DNA of 64,000 bases from a virus (Duplodnaviria > Caudoviricetes): IMG/VR virus record IMGVR_UViG_3300011008_000028; one strand, given 5' to 3'. Each line of letters starts with the position of its first letter. Position 1 is the stretch's first letter. A program made the position numbers and the translations under genes. The notes under the pieces were generated by a model, which did no database searches, was not told the DNA's origin, and saw only the letters and a program-made list of their open reading frames with translations. Below, piece after piece: positions 1 to 57,730 of this stretch.

Positions 1-102
1 AGTACGGCGATGATATTTTGCTCCGGTGTATTCGCCGGTATCAGGGTCAAATCCGGAACTTTCCATCATCTCTTGGTACTTTTCAAATATGGTCTTGCCC
101 AT
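1..102 (-). CDS. hypothetical protein, 5' part (runs off the window edge)
   Basis: ATG at 102 with GGAGG at 109-113 and TATATTAT at 134-141; open frame MGKTIFEKYQEMMESSGFDPDTGEYTG to the window edge. Confidence 0.7.
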   Translation of the reverse strand, partial: MGKTIFEKYQEMMESSGFDPDTGEYTGAKYHRRT

Positions 103-133
103 AATAAGCCTCCTCTCATATAGCTTCAAGTTA

Positions 134-141
134 ATAATATA
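134..141 (-). promoter_or_regulatory. TATATTAT phage promoter motif (representative of 11 sites)
   Basis: minus strand: 134, 5710, 13084, 16387, 22153, 46099; plus strand: 22969, 27704, 30442, 36874, 41273; each lies 15-85 nt upstream of a co-oriented start; similar to the phiKZ early motif TATATTAC. Confidence 0.7.
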
Positions 142-208
142 TATCTAAGAAATGTGTATAAACTATCAAACGAAATAATCCATCAGGCTAATTGTACCCT
201 ATAAAAGT

Positions 209-316
209 CGGCGGGCGCTATTCGGTGGTGACTCGGGTCACGGTGCTGGGGATGGTGCATTCAGTTGCTACCTGAATGGTACTGTGTCTTTTTCCTACTG
301 GTATTTTGGCGCCCGA
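209..316 (+). repeat. DGR variable-region-like cassette, copy 1 (orphan)
   Basis: 92/108 nt identical to 27489-27596; translates RRALFGGDSGHGAGDGAFSCYLNGTVSFSYWYFGAR, a CLec-fold DGR VR-type pattern; in-frame TAA at 176-178 and no ATG, so it is not part of a target gene. Confidence 0.85.
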
Positions 317-343
317 CTTTTAGGAATTCATAAAAGGTCCCAA

Positions 344-383
344 ACACCACACATCCGCCCAGACACGGGCGGATGTGTGGTGT
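344..383. terminator. 17-bp stem hairpin (terminator of 398..2950 and/or DGR-type post-VR hairpin)
   Basis: ACACCACACATCCGCCC-agacac-GGGCGGATGTGTGGTGT. Confidence 0.7.
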
Positions 384-397
384 GTTTATTGGGCAGA

Positions 398-2950
398 TTA
401 AGTTGTCGGGTTCGCTTGCTGCTGAGAATTAACTCTCATACCCCATGCTTGCTGAATGTATTTGTATTCAGTGCGGAGCATTCCTGTAATGATCGGAATC
501 ATCGGGTTGTAGAGATCATTAATCGCCTGCTGAGTTGTATTAAGAACATTCTGTGAAGCGGTGTACATAGCCGTATCCTGCTCATGCTTCTTCTGAGCTT
601 CTTCACCCTTTTTCTTTTCCTCTTCTGTCTGATTATCACTAACAGAAGGTGGCTGTTCAGTTTGCTGATCAGGTTTCAGGGAAACAACCTTATTCTTCAG
701 CGATTGCATAGCCGCAGTAATATCATCGTTCATCTTCTTACATTCTTCATATGTTGTCATCGAAGCGGAAACATCATTAAGCCATTTCTCTACAAGAGTT
801 TTATCAACGACCTTCTCTCCTGCAGGAATATCGCCAGCGGAAGGATTTCCGAAAAGAACCCAGTTCTGGAAAGCTTTGGGGTTCCAATCTTTAGATGCCC
901 CATATGTGGATGAATACAATCTGTCGTCTATACCTTCATACAGAGTCTTTCTGTATTCTTCAAGTCCACCTTCTTTAGTAGCTTTACCCAGATCACAATT
1001 GGTGATTGCTGCAATCAATTTGTCAAGATGAGTTCCTTTGTTGTACTTATAATCAAAACACTGGATACTTCCATTGAATGTTGCCGAGGTCAGTGCATCT
1101 TTGTTCTTCTGACACCAATTAACGGCAGCTTTGAACTGCTGATTGGTGAAGAACTCATCCCACTTCTTCTTGATCCCCTGAAGAAGAGCAAGAATTTTGT
1201 TGATTATATCCTGGAAGGAGAATGCCTCAGAGTAATACCAATCGTCCGCCATCCCCGGTATTGTCTTGACATATTCATCATACATGTTAAGACGGTCCAT
1301 CTCACTCATCAGAGAGATTACATCTGCAGCCTCAACAAAGGATCTGTTCGTATCAGGAATAGCAGACATGGTATTGATATTGCTATCATAATCACTCTTT
1401 AGAGTTCCGGGGATCTTGATGCTTATCTCTTCTATTGCGGACTTGAAATTAGCACGTCTGAGATCATTGATCTTCATCTCAATGTCTCTGCACTTTGACA
1501 GTACAGCAACGCCTGCCGTCTTATATATCTCACTGAGTATAAATCTCATATCATTCATATACTTTAACGTGAGCGTGTTTTTCTGGTTACCAATATCAAT
1601 CACAGAGTTGGATAAGCGACGGTATATGTCAGTGATCTTGTACGCAAATAGCGTGTATGCATATATCATATCACATGCCAGCTGTTCGTAGCCCGCGACA
1701 GTATCATCCCGTTCTCCCTTGCTGTTTACAGGAGTGATATTCTTAATCACCTCGATGAGTTCAAGTAACGGGGAAGTGCTATTGCCGGTACCAAGATTCT
1801 TCGATGTGATGAAGTCTTTGAGGTTACGGAGAACCTTCTCTGGGGCAGCATCGTTGATATTGTCATCGTAGAATGCACGTATTATTGATTCGCTCATATT
1901 GGAATCAAAGATGAAGTTGTATAACGAATTCAGACTTAGCTTTGCATAGACCTTATTCTCTGCGGCCAACTTTGCGAGCTCGTTATCACTATGCCAAGTA
2001 TCTCTGATGGCTTTAAGTGTAGGAATATTACCTACAGTAGTAAATGACATCAGCCACTCCGTTACCTTCTCGAGATAGTCATCGTAGTTGAATGGATCGA
2101 ATATGATAGAATCGTCAATGTCCTTCATGTATGTTATTTCAGAAAGAGCCACCGCATCCGCAGCCTCGGTCACACATTCATCTTTAGTTGTAGTTCTGGG
2201 ATCAACGAAGTCTCTGGCATATACTGTAATTGCATATGCCCTGCATGCGAAGGCAATCATTGTTGTCTTAACATACTCGATTATCCAGTTGCATGCTGAA
2301 GCCCTCATCTGTCCATTGAAGTACGTATACTCCTTGCTCGTCGGGTTAAGAATCACATCTGTAAGATATTCAACCGACTTCTCGATGGACTTGTATATCT
2401 CGATACGGTCGTTGTTATCAAACATATTCTTATTCTTAATGGACTTGAAGAGAGCTTTCTCCTTGTCATCGGCTTTCTGGATGTTGAATGTCATTACTTC
2501 ATTCACCATCATGCCGGCATCTGCTGGTCTATCCTTGAATGCATTTCTGCATGTTATTGCAAAGAAATCGGCATACTTCGAATCCTTGGTAATGTCGGTA
2601 TTCTTTGCGCCACGGACAACCCCGTCTGTAAATTGCAGTACGGATGCATAGTCGTATGCAGCAAATATAAATGGCTTTACTCGATCATATTCAACCGAGT
2701 ATGCGGTATCCATCTTATCAGGGTTGGAATTCTGAATAGCCTTCTGAAGTTCTTTGCCGTAAGATTCCCAAGAACGCACGAACGAGTTCACACTTCCCAG
2801 GAACGTTCTTACCTTATAATCATCAACGGAGCCATTGGCTGCGGATGAACGGAATACATCGATCTTAAACTTGGTACATATTTCCGATATGCCAGTTACA
2901 GATGCCCTGAATTCTTCAGCTTTCATCGGAACGGTAAATTTGTTTATCAT
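398..2950 (-). CDS. large hypothetical protein, probable virion head protein
   Basis: 850-aa ORF with AAGGAG RBS; VTE|AA, FVE|AA and YSE|AF sites resemble prohead-protease cleavage sites of jumbo phage head proteins. Confidence 0.55.
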   Translation of the reverse strand: MINKFTVPMKAEEFRASVTGISEICTKFKIDVFRSSAANGSVDDYKVRTFLGSVNSFVRSWESYGKELQKAIQNSNPDKMDTAYSVEYDRVKPFIFAAYDYASVLQFTDGVVRGAKNTDITKDSKYADFFAITCRNAFKDRPADAGMMVNEVMTFNIQKADDKEKALFKSIKNKNMFDNNDRIEIYKSIEKSVEYLTDVILNPTSKEYTYFNGQMRASACNWIIEYVKTTMIAFACRAYAITVYARDFVDPRTTTKDECVTEAADAVALSEITYMKDIDDSIIFDPFNYDDYLEKVTEWLMSFTTVGNIPTLKAIRDTWHSDNELAKLAAENKVYAKLSLNSLYNFIFDSNMSESIIRAFYDDNINDAAPEKVLRNLKDFITSKNLGTGNSTSPLLELIEVIKNITPVNSKGERDDTVAGYEQLACDMIYAYTLFAYKITDIYRRLSNSVIDIGNQKNTLTLKYMNDMRFILSEIYKTAGVAVLSKCRDIEMKINDLRRANFKSAIEEISIKIPGTLKSDYDSNINTMSAIPDTNRSFVEAADVISLMSEMDRLNMYDEYVKTIPGMADDWYYSEAFSFQDIINKILALLQGIKKKWDEFFTNQQFKAAVNWCQKNKDALTSATFNGSIQCFDYKYNKGTHLDKLIAAITNCDLGKATKEGGLEEYRKTLYEGIDDRLYSSTYGASKDWNPKAFQNWVLFGNPSAGDIPAGEKVVDKTLVEKWLNDVSASMTTYEECKKMNDDITAAMQSLKNKVVSLKPDQQTEQPPSVSDNQTEEEKKKGEEAQKKHEQDTAMYTASQNVLNTTQQAINDLYNPMIPIITGMLRTEYKYIQQAWGMRVNSQQQANPTT

Positions 2951-3012
2951 ACAAATACATCTCCTTATAATGAATTTATTATGAGTTACACCTTGGTCAA
3001 GTCATATGTTAC

Positions 3013-3813
3013 ATGAATAATAATCTTCACGCAATCAATATTAAAGGGACGGTGGATCAAATGAAAATATATAGATGTATGTACTGTGCTTATAGCGCAA
3101 TCCCCAATAAGAATAAAAAGGGGATTCACTCTGCTAAATATATGATGGGTAAACATTATGAAACCAAACACAAGTCTATGCTTCCTCCAGATATGGACGG
3201 ATATAGATTCTTTTACTGGAGTATTACTGGGAAGCAGAATGGAAGTTGCGTAATGTGTAAGTCACCTACGGATTTCAATTATGTGACCATGAAGTATTCC
3301 AGGTTTTGTAATAGCCCAGCATGCAAGCAGAAATACAAGGAAGAACGAGATCGTCGAATGATAGCCAAGTATGGGAAGGTGTATCTATTAGATGATCCGA
3401 TCATGCAACAGAAGATGTTACAGGGACGGAAGATATCCGGAACTTATACTTGGTCGGATGGGGTGACCAAGTTCCCGTATGTGGGATCATATGAGCAGGA
3501 TTTCCTTAGGCATATGGACAAAGACCTTCACTGGCCAGTTGGCGATTTGATCATGCCTAGTCCTCATACATACACATACAAGTTCAAGAATGAAGATCAC
3601 TTCTATATTCCTGATGCATTTATACCTAGCATGAACTGTGAGATTGAGATGAAATCCACAGTTCGACATGAAAAGCAAAACAATCCCGATTCCCGGGAAA
3701 AAGAGAAAATAAAAGATGAATTAATGAAATCATGTAGTAACATAATAAATTACGTTAAGATCGACGATAAGAACTATTCCGAGTTCGACGCACTTATTCA
3801 AAAGGAGGAATAA
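3013..3813 (+). CDS. Zn-finger + PD-(D/E)XK (TnsA-like) nuclease
   Basis: CxxC...H...H and CxxC...CxxxxC motifs; C-terminal SYE..FL...YIPDAF..EIEMK nuclease motif; true start may be 3061. Confidence 0.6.
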   Translation: MNNNLHAINIKGTVDQMKIYRCMYCAYSAIPNKNKKGIHSAKYMMGKHYETKHKSMLPPDMDGYRFFYWSITGKQNGSCVMCKSPTDFNYVTMKYSRFCNSPACKQKYKEERDRRMIAKYGKVYLLDDPIMQQKMLQGRKISGTYTWSDGVTKFPYVGSYEQDFLRHMDKDLHWPVGDLIMPSPHTYTYKFKNEDHFYIPDAFIPSMNCEIEMKSTVRHEKQNNPDSREKEKIKDELMKSCSNIINYVKIDDKNYSEFDALIQKEE

Positions 3814-3816
3814 GCC

Positions 3817-4023
3817 ATGATACACGACCTAAGTCAGTACTATATCGACTTTTCCAATCGGACTAATCTTACCGACAGTGAGAAAACTTACCTCGAGAAT
3901 ATTCAGAATTCATACAGACCGATTGAAAGAGTCGAGTTCTTAACTGAGTATCTCCTGATGGCGAAGATCACCAATGATGATTTCATAACCATGACTGGTG
4001 TTCCATACGAAGCAAATCAGTGA
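3817..4023 (+). CDS. small hypothetical protein
   Basis: 68 aa, AAGGAGG RBS, followed by hairpin 4054-4080. Confidence 0.7.
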   Translation: MIHDLSQYYIDFSNRTNLTDSEKTYLENIQNSYRPIERVEFLTEYLLMAKITNDDFITMTGVPYEANQ

Positions 4024-4088
4024 TACTCAATTATGTTACACATAACAGAAACTATGTCAGGGAGCAATGCTCCCTGACATCATATTTT

Positions 4089-4433
4089 TCATTCTGTTTC
4101 TGCCGGGTCTTCGTTCTTATATGCGTCCAGGATGAGCGCCGTAAGAGGCATGATATCTTCGTCTTTGCAGGACATTCTAACGCCCTTCCATTCACCAGCC
4201 GTGATATCCGCGTAGTCCTTGCCGAAGGTGATATCATTTTCACCCAGGGTAATGAACACAGTGTCTTCGACGATATGTCTTACTTCATAGCCGGTATCGG
4301 TTTTGAACAGCCTAACGAACTCCTTTTCATTGTTCTGGAACTCTTTGATATAGTAGATGATGTACTCCAACGGGACGGCGTTCTTCGGAAGCTCTTTGAA
4401 AGCATCTCTACCTATTTCATCAATAATGCTCAT
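4089..4433 (-). CDS. hypothetical protein
   Basis: 114 aa, AGGAGG RBS. Confidence 0.7.
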   Translation of the reverse strand: MSIIDEIGRDAFKELPKNAVPLEYIIYYIKEFQNNEKEFVRLFKTDTGYEVRHIVEDTVFITLGENDITFGKDYADITAGEWKGVRMSCKDEDIMPLTALILDAYKNEDPAETE

Positions 4434-4506
4434 GTTATTTCCTCCTATTAATACAAAAATTAGTCTCCTTGAAGGAGACTAATTTGATGTTCTTTGATAT
4501 GAATGT

Positions 4507-5040
4507 TTAATCAGTGTAACGAGACCATGTTGTGATAATCCACACCGAATGGTCTTCTGTTGGTTCAACATCGACATATGACTCATACCACGCAGCTTCT
4601 TTCTCCGTCTTGTATGTTTTACCGTTGAGTTTGAAGAACTTTCTGATTTCCTTCTCAGAAGTCGGTCTGTTAAACTGGTACTTTCTCTTCATATAGCCAT
4701 CGCCATAATTAATGGGTTTGGAGTTGATGAACTCAGTTGTCACAACAGCCAATGCATTGGGTTCCTCGAGTTCTTCATCGATACCTATCTTAGTCGTAGT
4801 CGGGAGAAGGAACATTACATCGATGAGGTCATATGTTGTGTTCTGTGTGGTTATAGTAATTCCGTCCACGGTGTTCAAAACATTGGTAATGGATGAAGTA
4901 TTCCAGATAGGCTTTTCCGTAATTGCGTCAACGAATGTGATATGCATGGGATCGGGCTTCATTGCTTTGAAGATCTTACCGTTTAATGCCTGACCATGAC
5001 CTCCGGACATTGCCTTCCTAAGTGTATACAAGTGCGCCAT
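4507..5040 (-). CDS. hypothetical protein
   Basis: 177 aa, AGGAGG RBS. Confidence 0.7.
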   Translation of the reverse strand: MAHLYTLRKAMSGGHGQALNGKIFKAMKPDPMHITFVDAITEKPIWNTSSITNVLNTVDGITITTQNTTYDLIDVMFLLPTTTKIGIDEELEEPNALAVVTTEFINSKPINYGDGYMKRKYQFNRPTSEKEIRKFFKLNGKTYKTEKEAAWYESYVDVEPTEDHSVWIITTWSRYTD

Positions 5041-5042
5041 AG

Positions 5043-5273
5043 TTACCTCCTATTCTTGTTCGAGACGTTCAGAGCATATGCCATAAGAACTCCGGCAGTC
5101 ATCAACATTACTGCTCCAACGATGAGATGTTGGATGCCTTCATTCTTCAGTTTGTCTGCCTGCTCTTCGAGACTTTCCGGAGTTGCATCCTTCGGAAGTT
5201 CGAAGTTTATCCCCGGGATGTTGTTGATGACCTGCTCGTAATCATTCATCATGTTACGTTTCCTCCTGTACAT
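5043..5273 (-). CDS. small membrane protein
   Basis: C-terminal hydrophobic stretch LIVGAVMLMTAGVLMAYAL; true start probably near 5252. Confidence 0.6.
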   Translation of the reverse strand: MYRRKRNMMNDYEQVINNIPGINFELPKDATPESLEEQADKLKNEGIQHLIVGAVMLMTAGVLMAYALNVSNKNRR

Positions 5274-5677
5274 TTGAATTTGGTTTCGATATCATGAATG
5301 ATATCATTGAATTCCTCTAATACATCCTTATTCTTTTCGAAGGTCTTCTCGAAAATATCCAGATCGATCTCCGTTGAATCAGAACTACAAGAGGAATACA
5401 TGGTCGTAAGATTTGCCCATGTGGAGCCGCCTGATACCTCGACATACATCGTATTATCTACATAGGATATTACAATGATCGTCAAGATATCAGGCTTATT
5501 GCTGGTGACTGTGAAACGACGTCTTTCCTTGCTTACTGTAACATACTTGGAAATACGTTTTGTCATTCCTTCACCGCTGGCATGATTGAATATATGCTTC
5601 AGCTGTTCGTAGACAGGCATCATATCCATCATGCGTTTAGGTTTGAACTCAGGGAACTTAAACTTTTTAAGCATCAT
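5249..5677 (-). CDS. hypothetical protein
   Basis: 142 aa, GGAGG RBS, TATATTAT motif at 5710-5717. Confidence 0.7.
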   Translation of the reverse strand: MMLKKFKFPEFKPKRMMDMMPVYEQLKHIFNHASGEGMTKRISKYVTVSKERRRFTVTSNKPDILTIIVISYVDNTMYVEVSGGSTWANLTTMYSSCSSDSTEIDLDIFEKTFEKNKDVLEEFNDIIHDIETKFKCTGGNVT

Positions 5678-5739
5678 AACACCTCCGATTTGTTATTCCC
5701 TTCATATTAATAATATATATTTGAAAATGAAAGAAATGC

Positions 5740-5769
5740 ATGAGTCCCAGGGAATTCCCTGGGACTCAT
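5740..5769. terminator. perfect 30-nt palindrome
   Basis: ATGAGTCCCAGGGAATTCCCTGGGACTCAT after the protease gene. Confidence 0.7.
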
Positions 5770-5774
5770 TGATA

Positions 5775-6635
5775 TTACGAATTTAACCAATCGGTGAGGA
5801 TGGACTTCGTCTTCTGACGTATTCCAGATGATGTGATCGGAGATACATATACGTTATCATTCTCTTTCAGAACAACGGAGTTGCCTGTTGCAGTTACTCC
5901 GAGAAGATCATCTGCCGTAAGATCGAATGCTTCACAGATCATGTCTGCATCTTTTGATCCAGCAACAGCCATCTTGGCAAGTTCCGGAAGGAATATAATT
6001 GTGCCAACGAAATCTTCCATAGCCTTTACAGATTCCTGAATAGGCTGTGTTATTCTGGCCTGAGCTTCACGATGTGACGGGAACATTACCCAGTCATACG
6101 TGATGAGCTTGCGTACATGTACCACGGGCTTTGCTCCTATGGATCTCAGAGCACCGAGGACACGAGCACTGAAGCACGGTATGATTTTACCATCAACAAT
6201 CTTGATTGCCATGTTCATACCATACTTGTTACTGGAGTCAGTCTGAATGGTAGCGATAAGAAGATTGCCTTCAAGACGAGGTGAACGGATGAAGTGAGAA
6301 GATCTATTGGCATCAGGTGTGGAGATCCTCTGCATTGTAAGTTCTTCACCTTGTTTCTGAGCAGATGGGTGATCCATCTCACCAATCCAGGAGTTGTTCT
6401 TCAACCATGTCTGAATCTGCTCATCTGTCTGGATGCAATTCCATACATTCTCGGCTTCATACATTCTCTTGTTACGATTCAGAACGCCGAACGACTGCAG
6501 TATGGCATCAAATATCAGATAGAATCTATTACCCTTATCGAATACCTGATAGCCGAAGTTATTACGGTAGTCATCTGTAAACGATGTCTGTTCATGAATA
6601 TAACACAGGGTTTCAAGATATTTAGGATCAATCAT
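5775..6635 (-). CDS. prohead protease (T4 gp21 / phiKZ gp175-like)
   Basis: NRNKRMY, GEMDHP, FSARVLG and ITYDWVMFPSH match the His/Ser/Asp blocks of this protease family. Confidence 0.85.
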   Translation of the reverse strand: MIDPKYLETLCYIHEQTSFTDDYRNNFGYQVFDKGNRFYLIFDAILQSFGVLNRNKRMYEAENVWNCIQTDEQIQTWLKNNSWIGEMDHPSAQKQGEELTMQRISTPDANRSSHFIRSPRLEGNLLIATIQTDSSNKYGMNMAIKIVDGKIIPCFSARVLGALRSIGAKPVVHVRKLITYDWVMFPSHREAQARITQPIQESVKAMEDFVGTIIFLPELAKMAVAGSKDADMICEAFDLTADDLLGVTATGNSVVLKENDNVYVSPITSSGIRQKTKSILTDWLNS

Positions 6636-7759
6636 TATGATCCACCTTCCTTCTCTTCTGTGATGGGAATATCAAAGAGCTCTTCCGCCGACTTTCCAAA
6701 CTCGAGAACAAAGTCATCATCCTTAGTGTTATTTTTGATCTGAGGATTCTCCTTATTGATAGCAGTAGCAACTTCCTTCTCAGTTTCACACAGCTGTGCT
6801 CTGAGTTTCTCCGCCTTCTTTTGGTAAGCTTCAATTGTTGCTTCCTGCTTCTTAATTATGACTTCCTTCTTCTTCTCGTCCATGTTCTTGATGTTCTTCA
6901 GTTGGTCTATGTTCATCTTGATGAACTGACACTGCTGATCAAGAGCGGAGATGGTATCTGCTTTCTTCTTGTACTTCAGATACAGACCGGAACGAATCAG
7001 AGGAACTATACCGAAGAGAGAGTTCTTGACACCCTTTACAGCATGAACTGCCAGAGAACCGATCTTCTTACCGCCGGTGATAGCAACATCGATTGCCTGG
7101 AGCATCTCGTCAACAGCACCTTCCATCATTACAGATTCCTGATAGTTGGAAGGACCCACATCATCGATGGACTTGAGCATTGTTTCAAGATACTGCTTGT
7201 GATCTCTACTGGTGAGCTGCTTTGCATAGTCTGTAAGCATTCTTGCTATGACACCGTTGGTCTGGGCAGATTTCTTCTTGATCTTGATATCGGTACCATT
7301 GGATACAACATCAACATTGGTAGCCATGATCATTGACAAACCTGTCACCAGCAAATATGCAGCGGTTTCATACTCGTAAACAACCAGACGGGCTTTCTTA
7401 GTATATCCCTCACTGTACAGAGCAGTGAACTCTTCAAGCTTCTTGAAGATGTTTCTGCAGTCTGTAAGCATTCCAAGATTAGAAACGTTCTTCGATAGGA
7501 AATCAATGGAGAACTTGATGTTCTCATAAGAATCAAAGTTCTTGATGTTACCTTTCGTTTCACTGATTCTCGTGTCGGTTCCCTTCTTGGAGAGCTGGTC
7601 TATAGACTTCACGAAGTTACGAAGATAACCATAACCTGTCGAAGTATTCTTATTCACATTCTCAGCCGCTTCTGTATATACAGGGGAGAGAACATTTGTC
7701 GTACCGGAAATGATTTCCATGTAGTCATGTGTAATATTATATGCACTCATTGTATTCAA
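6635..7759 (-). CDS. probable virion structural protein
   Basis: 374 aa, coupled to the protease gene; YTE|AA and YQE|S..MME|G motifs. Confidence 0.55.
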   Translation of the reverse strand: MNTMSAYNITHDYMEIISGTTNVLSPVYTEAAENVNKNTSTGYGYLRNFVKSIDQLSKKGTDTRISETKGNIKNFDSYENIKFSIDFLSKNVSNLGMLTDCRNIFKKLEEFTALYSEGYTKKARLVVYEYETAAYLLVTGLSMIMATNVDVVSNGTDIKIKKKSAQTNGVIARMLTDYAKQLTSRDHKQYLETMLKSIDDVGPSNYQESVMMEGAVDEMLQAIDVAITGGKKIGSLAVHAVKGVKNSLFGIVPLIRSGLYLKYKKKADTISALDQQCQFIKMNIDQLKNIKNMDEKKKEVIIKKQEATIEAYQKKAEKLRAQLCETEKEVATAINKENPQIKNNTKDDDFVLEFGKSAEELFDIPITEEKEGGS

Positions 7760-7772
7760 TCTCCCTTCTATA

Positions 7773-9587
7773 TTACTTATTCACCAGACGGTTGAGCTCT
7801 CTCATTAACTGGCTATTGTCCGTCTTGGCAACTTCAGCGTCAATTGCCGACAGGGATTGTACATCCCAATCCGTCATGTTGTCGGGGAATATGTATCTCA
7901 TCGTTCCTGCCGAGGAATCAACGATCACAACAGCAATGAGGAAGAGAGACTTCGCAAGGCGAACTGCATTACCTACAACGGAAAGATCGATGCCCGTCTC
8001 ATTGGTGAGACTTGTAACATCAGGCTGGGTCAGAATAAGTGTTCCATTCGGAATCGGAATATCGCCCTTATTAAGTCCAGATACAGGACCTCTCATGAGT
8101 GATCCATGAGTCTTATCAAACTCACTGAGTCTCTTGAGAGTGTTGACCCATCTCTTGTTATAATTGATGGACTTTCCAGCATCCTTCTTGATCGCCTTGG
8201 TGTTGAAGAGGTATTCCCAGTATGAAATTTCGCCAGTCTTGTAGCGAACCTTCTGCAGGGACTTAATCTTACCTGTAACAAGCTCTCTCAGATCCTCTGC
8301 CAGATCCTGAGTGCGGATAAGATGCATTATTGTCTTAACGCCGATGAGGTAGTGAACATCCGTATCAAGCTTGCCTTGAGAACGAACTCTGAAATGACAT
8401 TCAATCATATATGGTGCAATGGAGTTCATCTTCTTGATTTCAACTTCTCTTAGGAGAGTTGGAACCTCCGGTCCCTTGATCGTTTCAGGTGCTTTGCGCT
8501 GAACAACCTTGGTGGATGTTGAAGACGTAGATATCTTAGTACGAATTCTACCTGCACCATCGATTTCATAACCCTTAACCTTACCACGACTAATCTCAGC
8601 CTTGAATGCAGTGAGAGCCCGATCATAGCGATCTTCGATTTCCTTCTTATCATCCTTCTTATCATCAGGGACATCCTTCAACGACATCTGGAGAAGTTTC
8701 TTATCTTCAGAAGATATCCTGTCTCTATCACAGATAATATCGATGAGTTCCGCATCTGTAAGAGGCTTAAGCTGTGTCTGAGTTGTTGCAGACGTTTCCT
8801 TGTCATGAGATGCATTGTAAGCATCCTGCTCTCTCTTTGCAACTTTCTTTGCAACGAAGCCCTTCTTTTCTGCTTCCTGAAGATATGTGAAACCATCGAG
8901 AGGTTCACTGGAAAGACGAGCACATTCCTTGACAAGATATTCCGATGCCGTCTCAGGAACATATCTGAATTCAACGGTCATATCAGGGGTGATCTGATAT
9001 TCAGCAAACACAGACTCTTTCAGAATGGCATCCAGATCATCGATAGGCTGATAGAAGCCACCGTACATTACATCAACACTCTCCTTGAGGTTGGTGTGGA
9101 ATTGCTTCAGGAAAAGGAGTTCATTTGCTTCAGATTCATCAATTATCTTCTTCTGAGCAATTGCTGTCTGAACAAAAGAAGCATACACTCTCTCAAACGT
9201 TTTGGAGAGTATCTGAGCAGCGTTTACGGGCATTGACTGAGTTACATAGCAAGGGAATTGGAGAACTGAGTTCTTTGCTCTGGCGATGATACTTCTGGTA
9301 TCAACCTTACCCTTGTTGAGCATTCGGTCAAGCTCACTGGCTGTATCTGCAGCAGGTTTGATTCCCTTATTTGCTACAGCAGTCATTACATTTGCGGCAC
9401 CCTTGGCACCATTTCCCATTCCAGGCTGGTTATGACGCCAAACATCGCGTATGGCATCAGTATCGACGTCGGCAACGTCTTTAATTGCGCTGGATATGAA
9501 TCCTCCCTTCTTCTCGGTGAGGTATTCATTATTCTTATCGATCATGATATATCGCTCCTTTACAAAAGTGAATTTCCTATTGGACAT
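7773..9587 (-). CDS. probable virion structural protein
   Basis: 604 aa in the protease operon; LKE|S and LQE|A motifs; resembles AR9-like head proteins (by eye only). Confidence 0.55.
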   Translation of the reverse strand: MSNRKFTFVKERYIMIDKNNEYLTEKKGGFISSAIKDVADVDTDAIRDVWRHNQPGMGNGAKGAANVMTAVANKGIKPAADTASELDRMLNKGKVDTRSIIARAKNSVLQFPCYVTQSMPVNAAQILSKTFERVYASFVQTAIAQKKIIDESEANELLFLKQFHTNLKESVDVMYGGFYQPIDDLDAILKESVFAEYQITPDMTVEFRYVPETASEYLVKECARLSSEPLDGFTYLQEAEKKGFVAKKVAKREQDAYNASHDKETSATTQTQLKPLTDAELIDIICDRDRISSEDKKLLQMSLKDVPDDKKDDKKEIEDRYDRALTAFKAEISRGKVKGYEIDGAGRIRTKISTSSTSTKVVQRKAPETIKGPEVPTLLREVEIKKMNSIAPYMIECHFRVRSQGKLDTDVHYLIGVKTIMHLIRTQDLAEDLRELVTGKIKSLQKVRYKTGEISYWEYLFNTKAIKKDAGKSINYNKRWVNTLKRLSEFDKTHGSLMRGPVSGLNKGDIPIPNGTLILTQPDVTSLTNETGIDLSVVGNAVRLAKSLFLIAVVIVDSSAGTMRYIFPDNMTDWDVQSLSAIDAEVAKTDNSQLMRELNRLVNK

Positions 9588-13066: not shown

Positions 13067-13100
13067 CCTCCTTCCCTACTATTATAATATATCATCTGAA

Positions 13101-13634
13101 TCAGAAGTCCTCCGGTCGCAATCTGGCAAACACCACCAACTCATCAATATCAATGTCAAGCAGCCATGGACTGGTCTGCTCATACAGCGATTGTTTGATT
13201 GCGTCTTGTAAATGCAACACAGCAAAAGCTCGTTGATATTTTTCTTTCAGGAATTCGATACTGGCAGAAAGTGCTTGATATTTGATTCTGGACCCCAACA
13301 GTTGGTGTGCCTCTGAAGTAACCAGACTGTGTTCATTCTGTGTCATGGGCACGACAATCGTTGTCGACTTATTGTGGTTATCAGGATCCCGTATTGTGAG
13401 CGGAATAGGGATTATTTCGTCGAAATGATTCTCCTCCAGGATCTTCGTGATATTATCGAATCGATTTGTCATGGTACGAATCTTGAAATTCTTACATTTA
13501 TGGAAATCCATATATGCTTTGACAAGATACTCATCATCACTCCATGCCTGAATGCTTGGCTCAATACCCTCTCTTTTACTCTTACGCACAACGAAATACA
13601 TAGTCATTCGTTCATCGGCGTCATATGTCTTCAT
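13101..13634 (-). CDS. hypothetical protein (paralog of 13635..14291)
   Basis: N-terminus MYFVVRK..IQAWSDD..LVKAYMDFH parallels the neighbouring gene. Confidence 0.7.
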   Translation of the reverse strand: MKTYDADERMTMYFVVRKSKREGIEPSIQAWSDDEYLVKAYMDFHKCKNFKIRTMTNRFDNITKILEENHFDEIIPIPLTIRDPDNHNKSTTIVVPMTQNEHSLVTSEAHQLLGSRIKYQALSASIEFLKEKYQRAFAVLHLQDAIKQSLYEQTSPWLLDIDIDELVVFARLRPEDF

Positions 13635-14291: not shown

Positions 14292-15010
14292 AGATTACTC
14301 ATCTCCCTTTGGACGATTTGCACAAACGGTATTAGAATATTCCTGTAATTGTATTCCGGATTAATTACAGCCGACATGTTGTTGAATTCCAGATAGTATT
14401 CTTCATCAAGATCATTTCCCTTGTATTTCATAATGAAGTTAATCAAATACCTTCTTACCGTAACATCTCGACTTTCAATTCGAGATATCATCGTTGATAA
14501 GAATTCCAACATTGTCAATCTATGTCTGTTGAGACCGATATCTCCTATACCCTTCACGTCCAATTTATCTTTTGAATAATATATCTCCACATTGTGAATG
14601 TTAGGGAAGTGAATATATGAGCTATACCTATTCTTCTCGACGAATACTACCTGACCAAACTTGAGCCGTTTACATGGGGCGAATGTAAATATCGCATCCT
14701 TCTTTACGGAGATCATCTTTTCCGATGTCAACCCATTTGCCTGTATGAAAACATCTCTCACTTCGGCAAACTTGTCAAGAAACTTTTCCGCAAACACCTT
14801 ATCATCTCGCTGTAAGATTCCTATTGCTTTATGGCGTTCAAATCCCTTCTCGAGGAGTTCAAGCTCTTTAATCTTCTGCAAAGGTAGTAATCGGAATTCT
14901 TTGATTATACTGAAACCAGCATCTCGGATATCATACTCAATGATCTCTTCATTGAATAGGTAATCGATTTCTGGGTTGGTCCAGGTTGTCATTTGTGGTC
15001 TGTAATCCAT
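14270..15010 (-). CDS. family B DNA polymerase-like palm fragment (split jumbo phage type)
   Basis: IIEYDIRDAGFS (motif A-like), IGILQR, SVKKDAIF (motif C-like); only 246 aa. Confidence 0.6.
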   Translation of the reverse strand: MDYRPQMTTWTNPEIDYLFNEEIIEYDIRDAGFSIIKEFRLLPLQKIKELELLEKGFERHKAIGILQRDDKVFAEKFLDKFAEVRDVFIQANGLTSEKMISVKKDAIFTFAPCKRLKFGQVVFVEKNRYSSYIHFPNIHNVEIYYSKDKLDVKGIGDIGLNRHRLTMLEFLSTMISRIESRDVTVRRYLINFIMKYKGNDLDEEYYLEFNNMSAVINPEYNYRNILIPFVQIVQREMSNLWMNEST

Positions 15011-16361
15011 CTTTAACCTCCTTTACATATTTACCGTATATATTCATAACATATCCCTTCTGGGACGTAATATACCGGTTAAGATATTTTGCAACTTTAA
15101 TAAGAATCTGAGGATCCCGAACCTTTACCAATGTCTCAATCCTTTTATCAATCTTATGAGTTACAAGATCCAACGAGCCAATGTAAATATCCGGGTTCTT
15201 CTTCCCAAAGCAGTATACCCTGGAGTGTTCCAGTTTGTCCCACACAATGGACTTTATATGGACATTCATAAACATATTCCAGTCTGGGAGCCACGTGCAT
15301 ACCCCACGAATGATAAGATCCATAGTGCATCCTTTTGATGCGGCCTTATACAGAGCTTCAATGATTTCATTATCATCAAGAGCATTGCATTTGAAACAGA
15401 TATAGCCATCGGCATGAGACTGACTTTTTATCAGCTTCAGCAATGCCTTTCGAGCATTGTATCTGGTAACAAGGAAGTTTGAATTGAACACCGTATCTTT
15501 TATCCGTTTTCCTTTTAAGATCGAGAATACTTTGTCGACCTGATGACATATAGAATCATCTGCAGTAACTAAAGAAAGATCAGTGTATTGGGTCGTGGTC
15601 TTGGTGTGGTAATTTCCAGTACCAATCTGAGCAACAGATTTCCCATTGATGAATTTCACCAATGTAAGTTTGCAATGGACTTTCAGTCGCTCATATCCGT
15701 ATGCTGTAACACTGCATCCGATGCTCTCAAACTTCTGCATCCACTCGTAGTTGATATCTTCACCGGATGCACACAGCTCGATGTTAACATGAACTTTGAC
15801 ACCGCGTTCTACAGCGTTATTTATGATATCGAATATTGCTGGGTCCTTGCCTATCCGATACAGACATAGTTTGATCTCTGTAACGTCCTTGTTATTGGCT
15901 GCTTCTTCCAGGAATGACAAATAATCTCTGAAAGAATCCAGTGGATATTCGATTAGTTGATCTCTCATAAAGATATCGAAATAGCGGCTAGGACGGAACC
16001 ACTGTTGTTCTTCCTTCTTCACAGGTAAGTACTTCTCTACTATAGAAATCATAGAGGAAATATCCGAACATCCGGAAATATCTATGTTATAGAACTTATT
16101 CAGATCTTCTGTTATGAATTTCAAATTTTCCATGACTTGATCACAATCATTAGAGTAATCATCAATCACCATGCTAACATCGTACTTTGAGATCATCTCT
16201 TCAGTATTTGATATGAAGACCATATTGAAGAATAACGCTTCTTTGATTTTCTCCAGGGACAGCATATCCGGTGAGGCTATATAATGACCTTGTGCCAGCA
16301 CACGTTCATTGAACATCATCAATGATTGTATCATTGGGATTTGTTTAATTAATTTTTGCAT
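14949..16361 (-). CDS. ppk1: polyphosphate kinase 1, shortened
   Basis: FNERVL, LYR, IEL, KVHCK, GTGNY...YTDLSL, KCNAL, DLIIRGVC, LEHSR, GSLD...KRIE; 470 aa versus ~690 aa typical. Confidence 0.85.
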   Translation of the reverse strand: MQKLIKQIPMIQSLMMFNERVLAQGHYIASPDMLSLEKIKEALFFNMVFISNTEEMISKYDVSMVIDDYSNDCDQVMENLKFITEDLNKFYNIDISGCSDISSMISIVEKYLPVKKEEQQWFRPSRYFDIFMRDQLIEYPLDSFRDYLSFLEEAANNKDVTEIKLCLYRIGKDPAIFDIINNAVERGVKVHVNIELCASGEDINYEWMQKFESIGCSVTAYGYERLKVHCKLTLVKFINGKSVAQIGTGNYHTKTTTQYTDLSLVTADDSICHQVDKVFSILKGKRIKDTVFNSNFLVTRYNARKALLKLIKSQSHADGYICFKCNALDDNEIIEALYKAASKGCTMDLIIRGVCTWLPDWNMFMNVHIKSIVWDKLEHSRVYCFGKKNPDIYIGSLDLVTHKIDKRIETLVKVRDPQILIKVAKYLNRYITSQKGYVMNIYGKYVKEVKDGLQTTNDNLDQPRNRLPIQ

Positions 16362-16414
16362 CTTTAATACCTCCTTCTATATATTGATAATATATATTCA
16401 AAAAGAAAGGGACA

Positions 16415-22106: not shown

Positions 22107-22185
22107 TTAGTAACCCTCCTTTTCAGTAATATTTCTTTTGCTTCTTAATTTAATAATATATACGTGAAAATTCGGGTTATTCCAT

Positions 22186-22944
22186 TTACTTCATTGCATC
22201 GATAATATACGATATCGGCTCTGATAATTCCAGTTCCTCGGGCAAAGGCTCTGTGTACTTCTTATCAACAAAGAACTCGTACAAGACAAAAATATCATAT
22301 ATTTTCGAATACCAACTCCACAATGTGAGTTCGTTTTTGTTAGCTAGGTTATGTAGCATCTGTCTCATCATTGCAGGGATGTCTCTGGAGCCGGTATGAT
22401 AACCGAAAGAGATTGCTCTTTCATTGAGCTGTTGCAAACGAGGGTCATCTCGGTAACCGTTTCCTGCAATGATTGCCATTATGGTCTCATGTATCCCTGC
22501 TTCCTTGCGAATGTATGTTGCCAGGGCATTGTGAATCAACAATCCGATTCGCTGTGGAGTACCAACTCTTTTGTATGATCGTAAGGCGTCAATGGCGGAT
22601 TGAGCGGAAACAAATCGTTTGATCGGAATTATAGCAGGGAGTATGTCGGAATAGTTATGAATATGCATGTAAATAACATATTCATTATTGGAATTTATCC
22701 CCAGTAGATACTCAGGTGCTTTATCTTCAGTATTGACCTTTCGATCACCAATGTATACTTCTGGATGCCCTGGTTTGGCATCTTTGATTACATATGTAAC
22801 TGATGGATCATGGGTCTGTTTCAAATCATACCATTCTCTGGTTACATACTCAACTCTGTTTGGGTTGAATGCATCCCACTGTTTGGTGAGATCTACCTCA
22901 ATAACTCTGGTGTTATTGTTAATATTATTATCAGTACTAAGCAT
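22186..22944 (-). CDS. hypothetical protein, possibly tail-associated
   Basis: 252 aa, GGAGG RBS; VTREWYDLKQTHDPSVTYVIKD resembles a tail-fibre-type motif. Confidence 0.6.
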   Translation of the reverse strand: MLSTDNNINNNTRVIEVDLTKQWDAFNPNRVEYVTREWYDLKQTHDPSVTYVIKDAKPGHPEVYIGDRKVNTEDKAPEYLLGINSNNEYVIYMHIHNYSDILPAIIPIKRFVSAQSAIDALRSYKRVGTPQRIGLLIHNALATYIRKEAGIHETIMAIIAGNGYRDDPRLQQLNERAISFGYHTGSRDIPAMMRQMLHNLANKNELTLWSWYSKIYDIFVLYEFFVDKKYTEPLPEELELSEPISYIIDAMK

Positions 22945-23015
22945 GATACTGTACCTCCAATGAAAATATATATTATAATGATGGGTGGAAATAAACTAAT
23001 GAAAGGAAATGTGAT

Positions 23016-23306
23016 ATGAAAGATAAGAATGAATATATCTATGCAATAGATACTGAGAAATATTTTCACGAAGCAAAACCCGTCGGGAAGATATATGATT
23101 TATGGCGAATTCCATGTAGTAATCCAGGCCCAGGGATCAAACTAGCCAGGTTCAAATATGACCATACATCAAAGTCTTGGCTATGGTTAAGTTTCGAAAT
23201 GTTCAAAGATTTCGTCAAATATCAAAACATATTGACATATATCAAAAATTTCAATACCAAGGAGGAAGTCATCAGATGGAATTCGATGAAAAGTTTATTG
23301 AAGTAG
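23016..23306 (+). CDS. hypothetical protein
   Basis: 96 aa after TATATTAT (22969-22976) and AAGGA; overlaps the gyrA start. Confidence 0.6.
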   Translation: MKDKNEYIYAIDTEKYFHEAKPVGKIYDLWRIPCSNPGPGIKLARFKYDHTSKSWLWLSFEMFKDFVKYQNILTYIKNFNTKEEVIRWNSMKSLLK

Positions 23307-26300
23307 AAGCAGGAGAGATCACCAAGAAATGGCAAAGTGTATATGCGTACAACATTGTCATCGCCAGGATGATCCCAGAATTGATTGATGGTCTCAATCC
23401 TGTTAAGCGCAGAGCTATCTATACTATGTTTCTAAAAGATGGAGGGAAGAATTTCAGGAAGGTGTTAGCGATTTCGGGAGACACCGTCGGTAAGGTCCAT
23501 CCTCATTCCAGCACTTCAATCGAAAGTGCAATTGTGGGGATGGGACAGCCATGGAAAAATACGATCCCCCTAATCGAAAGAAAAGGTAATTACGGGACCT
23601 GCTATGATGAGGATACAGAAGTATTGGTATTGGGTTATGCAGATGCTCCTAATACGGTATCATGGGTAAAATGGAAAGATTTCTATGATAAATGTTCAGG
23701 GAAGCTCGGTTCCTGTGATATTGAAACCGGTGAATGGTTATGGGAGGAACCTAGCAACCTTGTCAAGTACAATATGAAAGAAAGATATGCCGATGAACCT
23801 GAGAAGATGATCATGATTGTCGGTAAGAACTCCGGAGCAGGTGGAGCTCCTGGTGGAGCAGTTGACTCTTCCGGAGGTGGACAGACAGGGGTAAGCTCTA
23901 CCGCTGGTGCTCCTACAAATGATCCATCCTTGAATAACCCTATCGATTTAGGCGAAACCCCTCCTGCACCTGGTGGGGCAAATAAGTTCATCGACTTCAT
24001 GGTTACCGAAGATCATAACATGGTCATCAAGGCCGTGTCTCCTGCTCCCGATGAAGATAAGTTTGAATTCCGTAAAGCAAATGATCTTCCTGATGTATTC
24101 CAGACTAAGGTCAAGGATATCATAATTCCGGAAGAGAGGAAAGGATTCGGCGAGAAACACATTCTCCCTACTCCCAACATGGAACCATATGGACTGTGGC
24201 AGCCTGATACAGAGTACAAGGATCCAGATGATCTTGTGTGGGTAGTTGATGCATTTGGCAAATCAGATCTCCCGATGAATATCTTCTTGAAGGTGATATC
24301 TGTCTTCCTGGCATATGGTAAACTCACAACGGAAGACAAGATTGAACTCAATGACGATGCAACGAAGGTTGATCTGGATGATCTGAAAGGGCTGTTTGAG
24401 TTCGAGGATGACACCCATATTACTGATGGGAACATTGTGGCATTCTTCAAAGGATATGATGAACCGATCATGCCTCCTACAGAAGAAGGTGAAGGAGGCG
24501 AGGAAGAAGCGGAAGAGGAAGAATATCCGGCATTCATCCCATATGGGATATTCATGATGAATACCGAGAATATCGAAACATTCTTCTCGACATATGCTGA
24601 AGTAACTCAGTCGTCTCCTCTGATGATCAAAACCACAACACAGGATATCCAGTATCAATTCCAGGCATTGGCTGTTATGACAAGCAAGTTCACATCATTG
24701 GGGCAAACCGATCCTGAATGTAAGCATCCTGTTGGTAAGGCCCAGGCAGGAAAGTTCAAATACATCGTTGAATGCAAACCTGAATTCGAACCTCGAATCG
24801 AGAAGAAGACGGCAATCAGTACTGTTGAGTACAAAGGTGATGTTTACTGTGCTGAGATGCCTACACATCACACCATGGTCACCAGACGTAATGAAGTCAC
24901 ACTGATTGCAGGTAACTGCTCCGGTGATAGTGCAGGCGCTCCTCGTTACATTCAGGCAAAGCTCTCTGAATATGCTCAGGCATGTTACTTCGAAGACTGG
25001 AAAGATTCCGTTGTTGATATGGAACTTGCATATGATGAAGAGACAATGATGCCTAACTATCTCCCGGCCAAGTACCCGAATGTATTGGTCAACGGCTGTT
25101 TGGGTGTTGCATATGGTATCTCGGTACAGATTCCATCGTACAACTTCAAAGAAGTTCTTGATGCGACAATCATGTTGATGAGAGATCCAAATGCAAATAT
25201 CATTCTGATACCAGATTCTCCTACGGGAGCGGACATCATCGAGGCCGACTTCGGAGCAATCACGAAACGCGGCAAAGGCGTATATATGCAGAGATGCCGG
25301 TATGAGATTGATCCCGAAAGCAACATGATCACAATTACAGCACTTCCCGAGCGTAGTACAGCAAATGCTGTTCGTGAGACCATTGCAAATATCAAGGAGA
25401 AGGGTGGACTGTCTGAACTTCTGGCAATGAATGATCTCTCCGGTGTTGATATCAAGATCGAACTGATCATTCGTGATGACGTAAATCCATACAAGTTCAT
25501 GAAGAAGTTGATCTCACAGGTAGCTGGGCTTGAACAGTCATACCCTGTAACAGTACGAGTGACATCCGACTATATGCTCTTCAAATATTCCATCCCGCAA
25601 GTATTGCTTGAATGGATCAAGTGGAGAAGGGAACAGAAACGAACTGTCCTGTCTAACAAGAGAGGAACATTGTACGGAGAGCAGAGAGTTAATGATATCA
25701 AACTCTTCATCATGAACCCGCAGAATCTGAAGGATACACTGGATATTTTCAGACACTCTCACAACCGACAGGAGATTGAAGAGAAGCTGATTGCCAAGTA
25801 TCGTCATACCGAGATCATGATGGATTCCGTTCAGGCTCGTGCTCTGTCTAACATGAGAATGATCGAACTAACGATCGATGCTTATGAAGGATATAAGAAA
25901 AGGGCAGAAGAAATCCGCAAGGAACTGCAGGAGATCGAGGACACACTGAATGCGGATGACGGTGTTGACAAGGTAATCATTGCGGAACTGAGAGAAGGTA
26001 TTAAACGTTTCGGGAAACCAAGACGTTCAAGAGTTGTTCCATACCAGATTTCTGTATCCAATGAGGTCGATGGTTGGTGCATACTGCAGCTGTCTTCGGA
26101 CGGTACAATCATTCGAATTCCGGCAACCAACGCAGATACTGAACCCGTTCCTACCGATACCAATGGATTTGCATGTCTGGTAGATAATGACGCTTCGTTC
26201 ATTCTGATAGATGATAAGGGATTCCATACATTTATTCGGGTCAAGGAACTGCCGGTGAACTCTGAAGTTCCTGTGTTCCGGTATTCCAAGAAACCATTGG

Positions 26301-27217: not shown

Positions 27218-27466
27218 ATGGAGCCTAACCTAAAATTTACCATTACTGATACTACCAAATTTGAAGAAGGTATAGACGGCCCTTGTGTTATCAAAGGTGC
27301 TGACAAGGGTATCGATATTGTCTTCATTAGAATCACTGATTCTAAAGTAAAATTTAAAGGCAATCAAGATACGATCCGTCAAATTGCTCGATCTAATCAT
27401 ATCAGTATGAACAAAGCTCGGAAACGATTTGCAAGGATTTATCGCGCCATCGTTAACATCTCATAG
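27218..27466 (+). CDS. small hypothetical protein
   Basis: 82 aa, GGAGG RBS. Confidence 0.7.
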   Translation: MEPNLKFTITDTTKFEEGIDGPCVIKGADKGIDIVFIRITDSKVKFKGNQDTIRQIARSNHISMNKARKRFARIYRAIVNIS

Positions 27467-27488
27467 TCATATGCTTCTCTTAAGAAAT

Positions 27489-27596
27489 CGGCGGGCGCTA
27501 TTCGGTGGTCACTCGTATCACGGTGCTTCAGATGGTGCATTCTATTGCGACCTGACTGGTACTGTGTCTGGTTCCAACTGGAATATTGGCGCCCGC
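27489..27596 (+). repeat. DGR variable-region-like cassette, copy 2 (orphan)
   Basis: translates RRALFGGHSYHGASDGAFYCDLTGTVSGSNWNIGAR, continuing LSLKP; only a short RBS-less frame from ATG 27471; hairpin ACATCCC-attc-GGGATGT at 27643-27660. Confidence 0.85.
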
Positions 27597-27727
27597 CTCT
27601 CCCTGAAACCGACCGCGGAAGGGAGAATCAAGAGACTTGGAAACATCCCATTCGGGATGTGTCGCCAGATGCAATAATTAACAGATAAAAATTATTGAAA
27701 TGATATATTATAAACATAAGAAAGGAG

Positions 27728-47930: not shown

Positions 47931-47983
47931 ATCAATAACCTCCAGTATACGAAGAATTATAGTCGAGTTGACAAAAAAAGAAA

Positions 47984-48014
47984 ATATCCACAGGGCACTA
48001 TGCCCTGTGGATAT
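47984..48014 (-). terminator. intrinsic terminator after beta'-N exon 6
   Basis: ATATCCACAGGGCA-cta-TGCCCTGTGGATAT followed by a long U tract on the minus strand. Confidence 0.8.
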
Positions 48015-48021
48015 GATCTCT

Positions 48022-48198
48022 TTAATAGTCGGAGAAGATCGCCAGGGATATTCCCTCGAGTGCAGAAATGTTGTAACGAATCTTTCCGCTGCTTCTGTTT
48101 ATGATCATATTCAGCGGTGAGAATCCACGGAACATTTCCCACAGTTCTTCCATCTCCAAACCTAACGTGTTCAACACGTCCCCGTCGAAATCTGCATT
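48022..48198 (-). CDS. beta'-N exon 6 (catalytic NADFDGD)
   Basis: AAT GCA GAT TTC GAC GGG GAC directly after the intron terminal G at 48199; absent from the ORF track. Confidence 0.9.
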   Translation of the reverse strand, partial: NADFDGDVLNTLGLEMEELWEMFRGFSPLNMIINRSSGKIRYNISALEGISLAIFSDY

Positions 48199-55668: not shown

Positions 55669-55709
55669 GCCGTTTCCTCCTTTTGATTTCAAAAATTGAT
55701 TTTGATGAT

Positions 55710-56331: not shown

Positions 56332-56361
56332 AGCTGTACCTCATAAGAACCAGTGTAGGAT

Positions 56362-56941: not shown

Positions 56942-56962
56942 GTACTATCACCTCTCATTCTA

Positions 56963-57674: not shown

Positions 57675-57693
57675 CCTCCTTTAGATGAAAAGA

Positions 57694-57725
57694 AAGCATC
57701 ACATGGGATATCCCATGTGATGCTT
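57694..57725 (-). terminator. perfect 32-nt palindrome after the purA-like gene
   Basis: AAGCATCACATGGGATATCCCATGTGATGCTT plus U tract on the minus strand. Confidence 0.75.
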
Positions 57726-57730
57726 GTTTG

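Follow-up and report, generated by a model that had tools for sequence, protein, structure and literature searches.

Results

A repeated module in the intergenic DNA of a jumbo phage

The sequence analysed here, which we call the window, is a stretch of 64,000 nt from an IMG/VR virus record. Its source is a jumbo phage of the gut, and among its genes are those for a virion-type multisubunit RNA polymerase beta subunit, topoisomerase II, an NAD-dependent ligase, an SbcC-like protein and HNH endonucleases. Two segments, copy 1 (209-316) and copy 2 (27489-27596), form a 108-nt direct repeat that aligns without gaps and with 16 mismatches, distributed over codon positions 1, 2 and 3 as 9, 5 and 2 in the frame of the TTC at 221. 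Realignment reproduced the figures of a preliminary description of this DNA, and the codon pairs listed there for the two copies read as given. The repeat is real, and the limits of 209-316 proposed for it can be refined, as the mismatch at position 316 already lies beyond the shared module; the module was also taken as too short, and extends over about 196-315 in copy 1 and 27476-27643 in copy 2. The parts of the two modules are listed below; G001, G002 and G003 are IMG/VR contigs, and the target gene is the tail-protein gene described in a later section.

196-208, plus strand: AT-rich stub of copy 1 with a TATAAA-like box, part of the cassette by homology to the cassette at 23.2 kb of G002
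209-223, plus strand: G-rich leader arm CGGCGGGCG and VR-type 5′ flank GCGCTATTC of copy 1, identical in copies 1 and 2
224-313, plus strand: adenine-mutagenised 90-nt tract of copy 1, homologous to the TR
314-315, plus strand: last two bases (CG) in copy 1 of the VR-type GC-rich 3′ element GGCGCCCG, from the alignment
316-338, unstranded: weak hairpin after copy 1, from reading the sequence
344-383, unstranded: terminator hairpin with a 17-bp stem, from the terminator scan, adjoining the stop (398) of an 850-codon minus-strand gene
27476-27488, plus strand: AT-rich stub TCTCTTAAGAAAT of copy 2, of which 12 nt are identical before another cassette on a contig of run X1
27489-27503, plus strand: leader arm and VR-type 5′ flank of copy 2, identical to copy 1
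27504-27593, plus strand: adenine-mutagenised 90-nt tract of copy 2, homologous to the TR
27594-27643, plus strand: 3′ tail of copy 2, whose first ~25 nt are the last codons of the target gene (RLSLKPTA)
27598-27626, unstranded: hairpin TCTCCCT/AGGGAGA, from reading the sequence
27643-27660, unstranded: hairpin ACATCCC/GGGATGT, from reading the sequence, ahead of a promoter-like box of the ligase gene (27702-27715)

Counts for a 21-nt leader sequence and for a 36-nt masked core gave exactly two occurrences of each in the window, where shuffled sequences lead one to expect 0, and searches with the leader, the core and the repeat gave no third copy within the 64,000 nt. The two tracts have a high G+C content and few A (13 and 16 per 108 nt, with A making up 28% of the genome), and their translations are RRALFGG...GAR peptides, of the type that ends DGR-diversified lectin-fold proteins. 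An independent Logan contig (record 1 of the best-holding run) reproduces copy 1 and both of its flanks base for base, so copy 1 is not a misassembly of the IMG/VR record alone.

The copies are not the ends of genes

Copy 1 lies between two minus-strand genes and is antisense to them. Upstream of it is the AT-rich promoter region of one of these genes, with the promoter-like box and the start (at about 102) to the left of the copy. In the frame of copy 1, a TAA stands at 176-178, 45 nt upstream, and no ATG, GTG or TTG occurs before the repeat. Copy 2 has a plus-strand gene on either side (27218-27466 and the ligase gene, which begins at 27728) and is followed by the two hairpins. The frame that contains it has 82 codons and no RBS, and overlaps the upstream gene at that gene's end. 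It had been noted before that copy 1 has an in-frame stop at 176-178 and no ATG and that neither copy ends a gene, and our reading leads to the same view of both. An alternative genetic code or splicing to an upstream exon was considered for copy 1 and rejected, because the stops that block its frame are TAA triplets in the AT-rich promoter of the divergent gene.

An exhaustive phmmer search with the frame of copy 2 gave 15 weak matches, and a search for longer proteins homologous to this frame found none. One of the matches (P0002) is an 83-aa ORF with the Asn-rich core that the preliminary description had predicted; as a protein it was discarded, being an ORF call that runs across the TR. 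The sole match of the same frame in a PDB sequence search was a nanobody and was put down to chance.

A DGR lies on contigs that abut the window

A search pattern in which every predicted TR adenine was masked was scanned against IMG/VR contigs and matched VR/TR pairs in three of them (G001, 71.5 kb; G002, 118.7 kb; G003, 4.8 kb); the same pattern had no match in JGI metagenome contigs or GTDB genomes. At locus L001, the VR is the C-terminal end of a 547-aa tail protein (phrog_5302, 7e-89). A TR of 90 nt, present in loci L001, L006 and L007, lies about 360 nt downstream of this target gene, and about 240 nt after the TR comes a reverse transcriptase (RT) of 369 aa (RVT_1, 1.2e-21; phrog_1423, 5e-99) with the motif YMDD, whose best PDB match is the 8ub7 'Reverse transcriptase' series (3e-24). 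An Avd-like ORF of 100-130 aa was absent between VR, TR and RT in the ~3 kb inspected, and the nearby ORFs had no Pfam match. The VR of the 547-aa protein is thus the 3′ end of a protein-coding gene, which copies 1 and 2 are not.

In these contigs the RT gene stands next to the TR, outside the window itself. When 65 window ORFs were scanned, RVT_1 was not among the families listed (E below ~4e-5), in line with the earlier statement that the window holds no RT. The first 31 nt of G002 (1-31) match window 63970-64000 with 100% identity. Read in reverse complement, G001 corresponds to the first 71.5 kb of G002. Run X1 holds 93% of the window's words together with contigs that carry the variable content of two cassettes of G002, at 71k and 92k. 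From the exact 31-nt overlap and the cassette content shared in run X1, we infer that G002 continues the genome of the window or of a near-identical strain, whose TR, RT and target gene would be those read from the IMG/VR contigs. With G002 placed after the window, the RT would fall at about 72.8-73.9 kb in window coordinates, and the distance to the DGR would be ~74 kb for copy 1 and 47 kb for copy 2.

The nearest deposited phage relatives of the target (L001:2157-3797) are tail proteins of the rumen Butyrivibrio phages Idris, Arawn and Closwp03, with 36% identity over 73%, which hints at a possible Lachnospiraceae host for the phage. The tail-protein gene of G002 (L007) is without 33 nt (11 codons, including the FGG motif) that are present in G001 (L006) upstream of the VR core, and the contig G003 ends at the same point. 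For this gap in G002 there are two readings: a true in-frame deletion, or a wrong path taken by the assembly at the repeats.

Differences from the TR fall at adenines

The 90 nt of the TR contain 27 A and 63 non-A positions, and mismatches to it were assessed by a hypergeometric test. In copy 1, all 16 mismatches are at adenines and 0/63 elsewhere (P 6e-11), and in copy 2 the same holds for 12/12, again with 0/63 elsewhere (P 6e-8). For comparison, 13/14 mismatches of the expressed target VR and 17/17 of the G002 23k copy are at TR adenines. A TR thus exists, and copies 1 and 2 differ from it exclusively at adenines, as expected of the VR of a DGR. The template that the preliminary description had reconstructed is identical to the real TR at 90/90 nt, even in two codons at which copies 1 and 2 have the same non-A base; the GGT codon at 278-280, common to both copies, is itself a mutated AAT. 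The description had further argued that neither copy is the template, and the TR was indeed found separately, with both copies differing from it. What it had proposed to look for, namely a TR, an RT, a target gene and further orphan copies, was all found on the IMG/VR contigs abutting the window, and nothing that it had named as evidence against itself turned up, since TR and RT exist and the two copies together have 28/28 of their differences at TR adenines.

Within the tract, copies 1 and 2 differ from each other at 15 sites, all of them adenine sites, despite their common short-leader junction. Ten adenine sites are mutated in both copies, and the same base is found at 3 of them, where chance alone would give ~3.3, so the contents of copies 1 and 2 look like independent draws. 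Among contigs of the samples that hold the phage, 10/11 varying positions are TR adenines (P 1e-5, on Logan contigs, which drop rare variants). In run X2, which comes from another study, the orthologous cassette at the site of copy 1 differs at 4/17 adenine sites and 1/44 other sites (P 0.019). The flanks differ by 2-10% between strains, and intact copies have 0/63 non-adenine changes relative to the TR. The truncated G002 copies at 71k and 92k do carry non-adenine changes (two in the 92k copy), as expected if they are no longer rewritten.

A family of cassettes with flanks of their own

The TR-homologous tract of copies 1 and 2 is flanked by VR-type sequence that is absent from the TR. On the 5′ side this is a 6-nt CTATTC block; the flank GCGCTATTC is present in the target VR. 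Its 3′ counterpart is CG in copy 1, whereas copy 2 has the last ~25 nt of the target gene. Where copy 1 has positions 314-315, the TR has AT, and the target VR and the other cassettes have CG followed by CCTCTCCC; beyond 315, copy 1 is without the VR-type tail. Both copies keep GGCGCC plus CG, and copy 2 but not copy 1 has also retained the 25-nt target-gene tail. The hairpins after the copies differ in type from those of BPP-1. The flanks of the TR itself are not carried in either copy.

Other parts of the modules are shared among gene-less copies and not with the target gene. The leader arm CGGCGGGCG is absent from both the TR and the target gene. The tail of copy 2 has a single exact match in the window, and its distal ~25 nt are common only to a gene-less copy at 71.6 kb of G002. 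The AT-rich stub of copy 1 is like that of the G002 23k copy, with which homology begins at 196 (ACCC(C)TATAAAA.TC), the flanks further left being unrelated; the stub of copy 2 is like that of another contig of run X1. Compared with the G002 23k copy, the leader of copy 1 lacks 35 nt between short GGGCG repeats, and copy 2 has the same shortened junction.

At least four further gene-less copies are present in G002, at 23.2, 71.6, 92.3 and 118.6 kb, in both orientations. The 71k copy is 5′-truncated and the 92k copy is 3′-truncated, without the 3′ GC element, and these two have identical variable content in unrelated flanks. The content of the 118.6-kb copy equals that of the expressed VR, and this copy sits at a contig end where the assembly is tangled at these repeats. 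The 23k locus could be compared between G001 (47800-49200, reverse complement) and G002 (22600-23900), which come from different samples and have flanks that are 100% identical over more than 1.2 kb. Exactly 137 nt are missing from G001 here: the gap opens at the first base of the leader arm and closes inside the 3′ GC element, with the AT-rich stub and the tail still in place. A polymorphism of this kind amid identical flanks indicates that cassettes are gained or lost on a very short timescale. A MITE- or REP-like repeat was rejected, as there is no target-site duplication at the site that is polymorphic between G002 and G001, and stub and tail stay behind.

Short ORFs built from VR-like units were seen in other data as well. 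Six of them (P0001, P0004, P0005, P0006, P0010 and P0011; 89-167 aa) consist of two or three tandem VR-like units without a lectin scaffold. Such tandem VR-unit ORFs (GG..G..G.F.C.L....S.W.IGA) stem from ENA/Logan metagenome contigs of ~1 kb and are all singletons; they could represent gene-less VR cassettes arrayed in other genomes.

Intact cassettes have a predicted fold

On the plus strand, three intact cassettes fold far better than shuffled sequences (z of -4.1, -5.1 and -3.1), whereas z is -0.4 for the TR, -0.3 for the true VR and -0.2 for the 3′-truncated copy. The gain is largely the pairing of the cassette-specific leader with the 3′ GC element. A second type of leader, in the 92k and 118k copies, is complementary to the 3′ GC element in another register, and a TATAAA-like box is found at the 5′ edge of the module in both leader types. 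The cassettes had no match in Rfam, either at the gathering score or at E<=1. After copy 2 (27598-27660), the terminator scan called no T-run terminator.

Discussion

We propose that copies 1 and 2 are gene-less target modules of the phage's own DGR and that the function of the copies is most likely none or weak, and we give this reading a probability of about 0.72. Each copy would be a stub that corresponds to the 3′ end of the tail-protein gene diversified by the DGR. It consists of a VR between VR-type flanks, to which copy 2 adds the gene's final codons, and both copies sit in intergenic DNA beside hairpins. The RT would copy TR RNA and misincorporate at adenines, and the cDNA would then replace the homologous tract in any DNA that combines the GC-rich 3′ element of the VR type with a hairpin close by and homology over a few bases on the 5′ side, attachment to a gene not being required. 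As leader, stub and tail are common to the gene-less copies but not to the target, the copies appear to derive from each other. One gene-less ancestor would thus have spread through DNA duplication, and each of its descendants would have been rewritten on its own at its site, or converted by other copies that the DGR had written, in a way that keeps non-adenine positions identical to the TR. Off-gene targets of this kind would be tolerated, and could duplicate, be truncated and be deleted.

Several observations sit less well with gene-less targets. In copy 1 the VR-type tail is missing after CG, and the copy may have ceased to be competent as a target; the hairpins downstream do not have the 7-10 bp stem and 4-nt GRNA loop of BPP-1-like targets; and no Avd-like gene was found within ~3 kb of the RT. 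In addition, the leader arms of some nine copies are conserved and pair with the 3′ GC element. This suggests that selection is at work, and a pure by-product leaves it unexplained.

The main alternative on function, which we consider unlikely, is that the cassettes are a silent donor library that stores DGR-written variants and recombines them with the VR of the expressed tail-protein gene. The donors of Neisseria pilS, Borrelia vls and Treponema tprK have no promoter and partially repeat the variable region of one expressed surface or receptor-binding gene, and in these systems diversity is stored and moved solely by gene conversion. The cassettes resemble them in that they lack both promoter and start codon and partially repeat, elsewhere in the genome, precisely the variable region of a single expressed gene, and their invariant blocks on both sides make them partial unexpressed copies with conserved recombination blocks; they differ in that their diversity was probably written by reverse transcriptase. 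The same variable content in different flanks at 71k and 92k indicates DNA-level copying, the content of the copy at the end of G002 is that of the target VR, and the 92k copy, with 2 non-adenine changes and without the 3′ GC element, looks as a frozen copy should. However, no mosaic tract common to the target VR and copy 1 or 2 stands out. Copy 1 shares 7/9 states with the target, a post hoc count that is lost after correction for 10 pairs and for the site-specific bias of the RT (PMC12875486); its 5/6 shared states with the G002 23k copy in the 5′ third are equally post hoc and not significant under the same correction. The copy identical to the target VR lies where the assembly is tangled, and the flanking homology blocks are just 10-15 nt long. 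A fuller version, in which hairpin-bounded gene-less VR modules are a DGR-written archive, recombine mutually and with the tail-protein gene, and become locked once truncated, seems to us improbable as well.

The cassettes could also be frozen relics, each copied as DNA from the 3′ end of the target gene at a different time and never rewritten since; the differences between copies would in that event record the history of the expressed VR, and we find both ideas distinctly unlikely. Treponema denticola is known to have truncated target genes, of 58-136 aa (PMC4891356), and some copies here are 5′- or 3′-truncated, copy 1 having lost its VR-type tail. Yet relics would not explain why leader arm, stubs and distal tail are common to gene-less copies and absent from the target gene, why copies 1 and 2 have the same short-leader junction but 15 differing sites that are all adenine sites, or why intact copies show 0/63 non-adenine changes though the flanks of strains differ by 2-10%. 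Another reading, which has a slender chance in our view, takes the cassettes as small structured RNA genes or cis-acting DNA hairpins that modulate, for example, the DGR or neighbouring terminators, so that AT-rich box, G-rich leader, VR, 3′ GC element and terminator would give a rod-like RNA or a cruciform. The strong fold of intact copies against near-zero values for TR, VR and the truncated copy, the two different leader types that are each complementary to the 3′ GC element, the TATAAA-like box within the 5′ boundary of both, and a 137-nt loss in a near-identical phage that begins at the first base of the leader arm all agree with it. On the other hand, the cassettes match no Rfam family, their orientation is inconsistent (copy 1 is antisense to its neighbours and copy 2 sense), their AT-rich boxes are poor matches to the recurrent promoter-like motif of the phage, and intact copies are too few for a covariation test. 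Finally, the preliminary description had considered ectopic retrohoming products, that is, mutagenised TR cDNA inserted at non-homologous sites by off-target retrotransposition. All differences from the TR are at adenines, and the cassettes adjoin hairpins as group IIC introns do (PMC3240598), both of which would be expected; but both copies have VR-type flanks that are absent from the TR and its flanks (CTATTC on the 5′ side, CG or the 25-nt gene tail on the 3′ side) and do not carry along the flanks of the TR, so the insertion of bare cDNA is disfavoured and appears highly improbable.

Gene-less targets of a DGR fit the genetics of BPP-1, in which the sequence upstream of the VR is dispensable and the IMH and hairpin suffice to target a heterologous gene (PMC3240598). 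With BPP-1 the present system shares a TR/VR pair that differs at adenines only, a GC-rich element where the VR ends on its 3′ side, and inverted repeats downstream. It differs from the arrangement of mtd VR, IMH and hairpin/cruciform in BPP-1 in that the targets are without any gene and several, in either orientation, are dispersed tens of kb away from the RT. Here the hairpins are long-stem terminators or have 15-nt loops, whereas those of BPP-1 have 7-10 bp stems and GRNA tetraloops; in addition, a G-rich leader arm pairs with the 3′ element, and no Avd was found. DGRs with many targets are known from Trichodesmium erythraeum, with 12 VRs (PMC4143802), and from Treponema denticola, with up to 7 targets plus 'suspicious' truncated ones of 58-136 aa (PMC4891356). 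As in these, one TR serves many remote VRs, and some copies have decayed cis elements and non-adenine changes. Unlike these, in which the VRs end full-length or truncated protein genes, the copies here are start-less intergenic stubs of 110-170 nt, and they share a leader and tail of their own, propagating as a cassette family. Group IIC introns (PMC3240598) are likewise retroelement-related sequences in intergenic DNA beside hairpins that resemble intrinsic terminators, but the cassettes have neither ribozyme nor RT ORF, and show VR-type flanks, which are not a signature of insertion. The gene-less VR family is a variant of the known DGR system and not a new mechanism. Multi-target DGRs and truncated targets have been described in the literature, in which we found no description of gene-less VR cassettes that are rewritten without a gene.

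DGRs are understood as systems that diversify the ends of proteins, and surveys define and filter VRs as lying inside coding sequence; a large survey places the VR within a coding sequence (PMC8144416). Non-coding VR modules that are adenine-mutagenised from a TR up to 74 kb away would mean that DNA cis elements alone set the targets in vivo, as plasmid experiments predicted, and that one genome can accumulate many gene-less DGR target sites. Pipelines that require an ORF miss gene-less copies, and assemblies break at them. The architecture may recur elsewhere, as the short ORFs with tandem VR units suggest. Gene-less targets raise the questions of whether off-gene copies titrate cDNA, whether they serve as donors for the expressed receptor-binding gene, and whether the pairing of leader and 3′ element, which is absent from VR and TR, acts on DNA or RNA. 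If the cassettes were an archive, the phage would pair random hypermutation with a stored repertoire of receptor-binding tips; as a donor library, they would be a memory of earlier receptor-binding variants, in which copies without the 3′ element are shielded from overwriting.

Further features of the window

A blastn comparison of window 1-8000 with INPHARED gave no matches, and a search for related loci with two window proteins found none. Further ORFs of the window include one for a polyphosphate-kinase-like protein (PLD-type) and one for adenylosuccinate synthetase (14952-16361, minus strand, and other ORFs), and there is an NAD-salvage set with NAPRTase, NAD synthase, an isochorismatase/nicotinamidase-like and a cytidylyltransferase-like protein. 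A promoter-like box TATATATTAT(T/A)AA recurs 25-35 nt before start codons, usually just 3′ of a terminator hairpin; examples are found at 129-150, 5706-5737, 13068-13101, 16383-16414 and 22149-22180 on the minus strand and at 27702-27715 on the plus strand.

A group I catalytic intron lies at 48209-48540 on the minus strand (Rfam RF00028, 60.3 bits, full-length model), among paralogous minus-strand genes. From 48650 to 64000, dispersed repeat families D1-D12 are found among paralogous genes, for example as 35-65-nt units ending in GACTATATCTTC, and both G001 and G002 break inside the last such unit of the window (63929-63997). A 98-nt G+C-rich element at a gene start (55253-55350) is 100% identical to G001:55496-55593, ~25 kb further on, and is also present at G002:16055-16139 over 85 nt.
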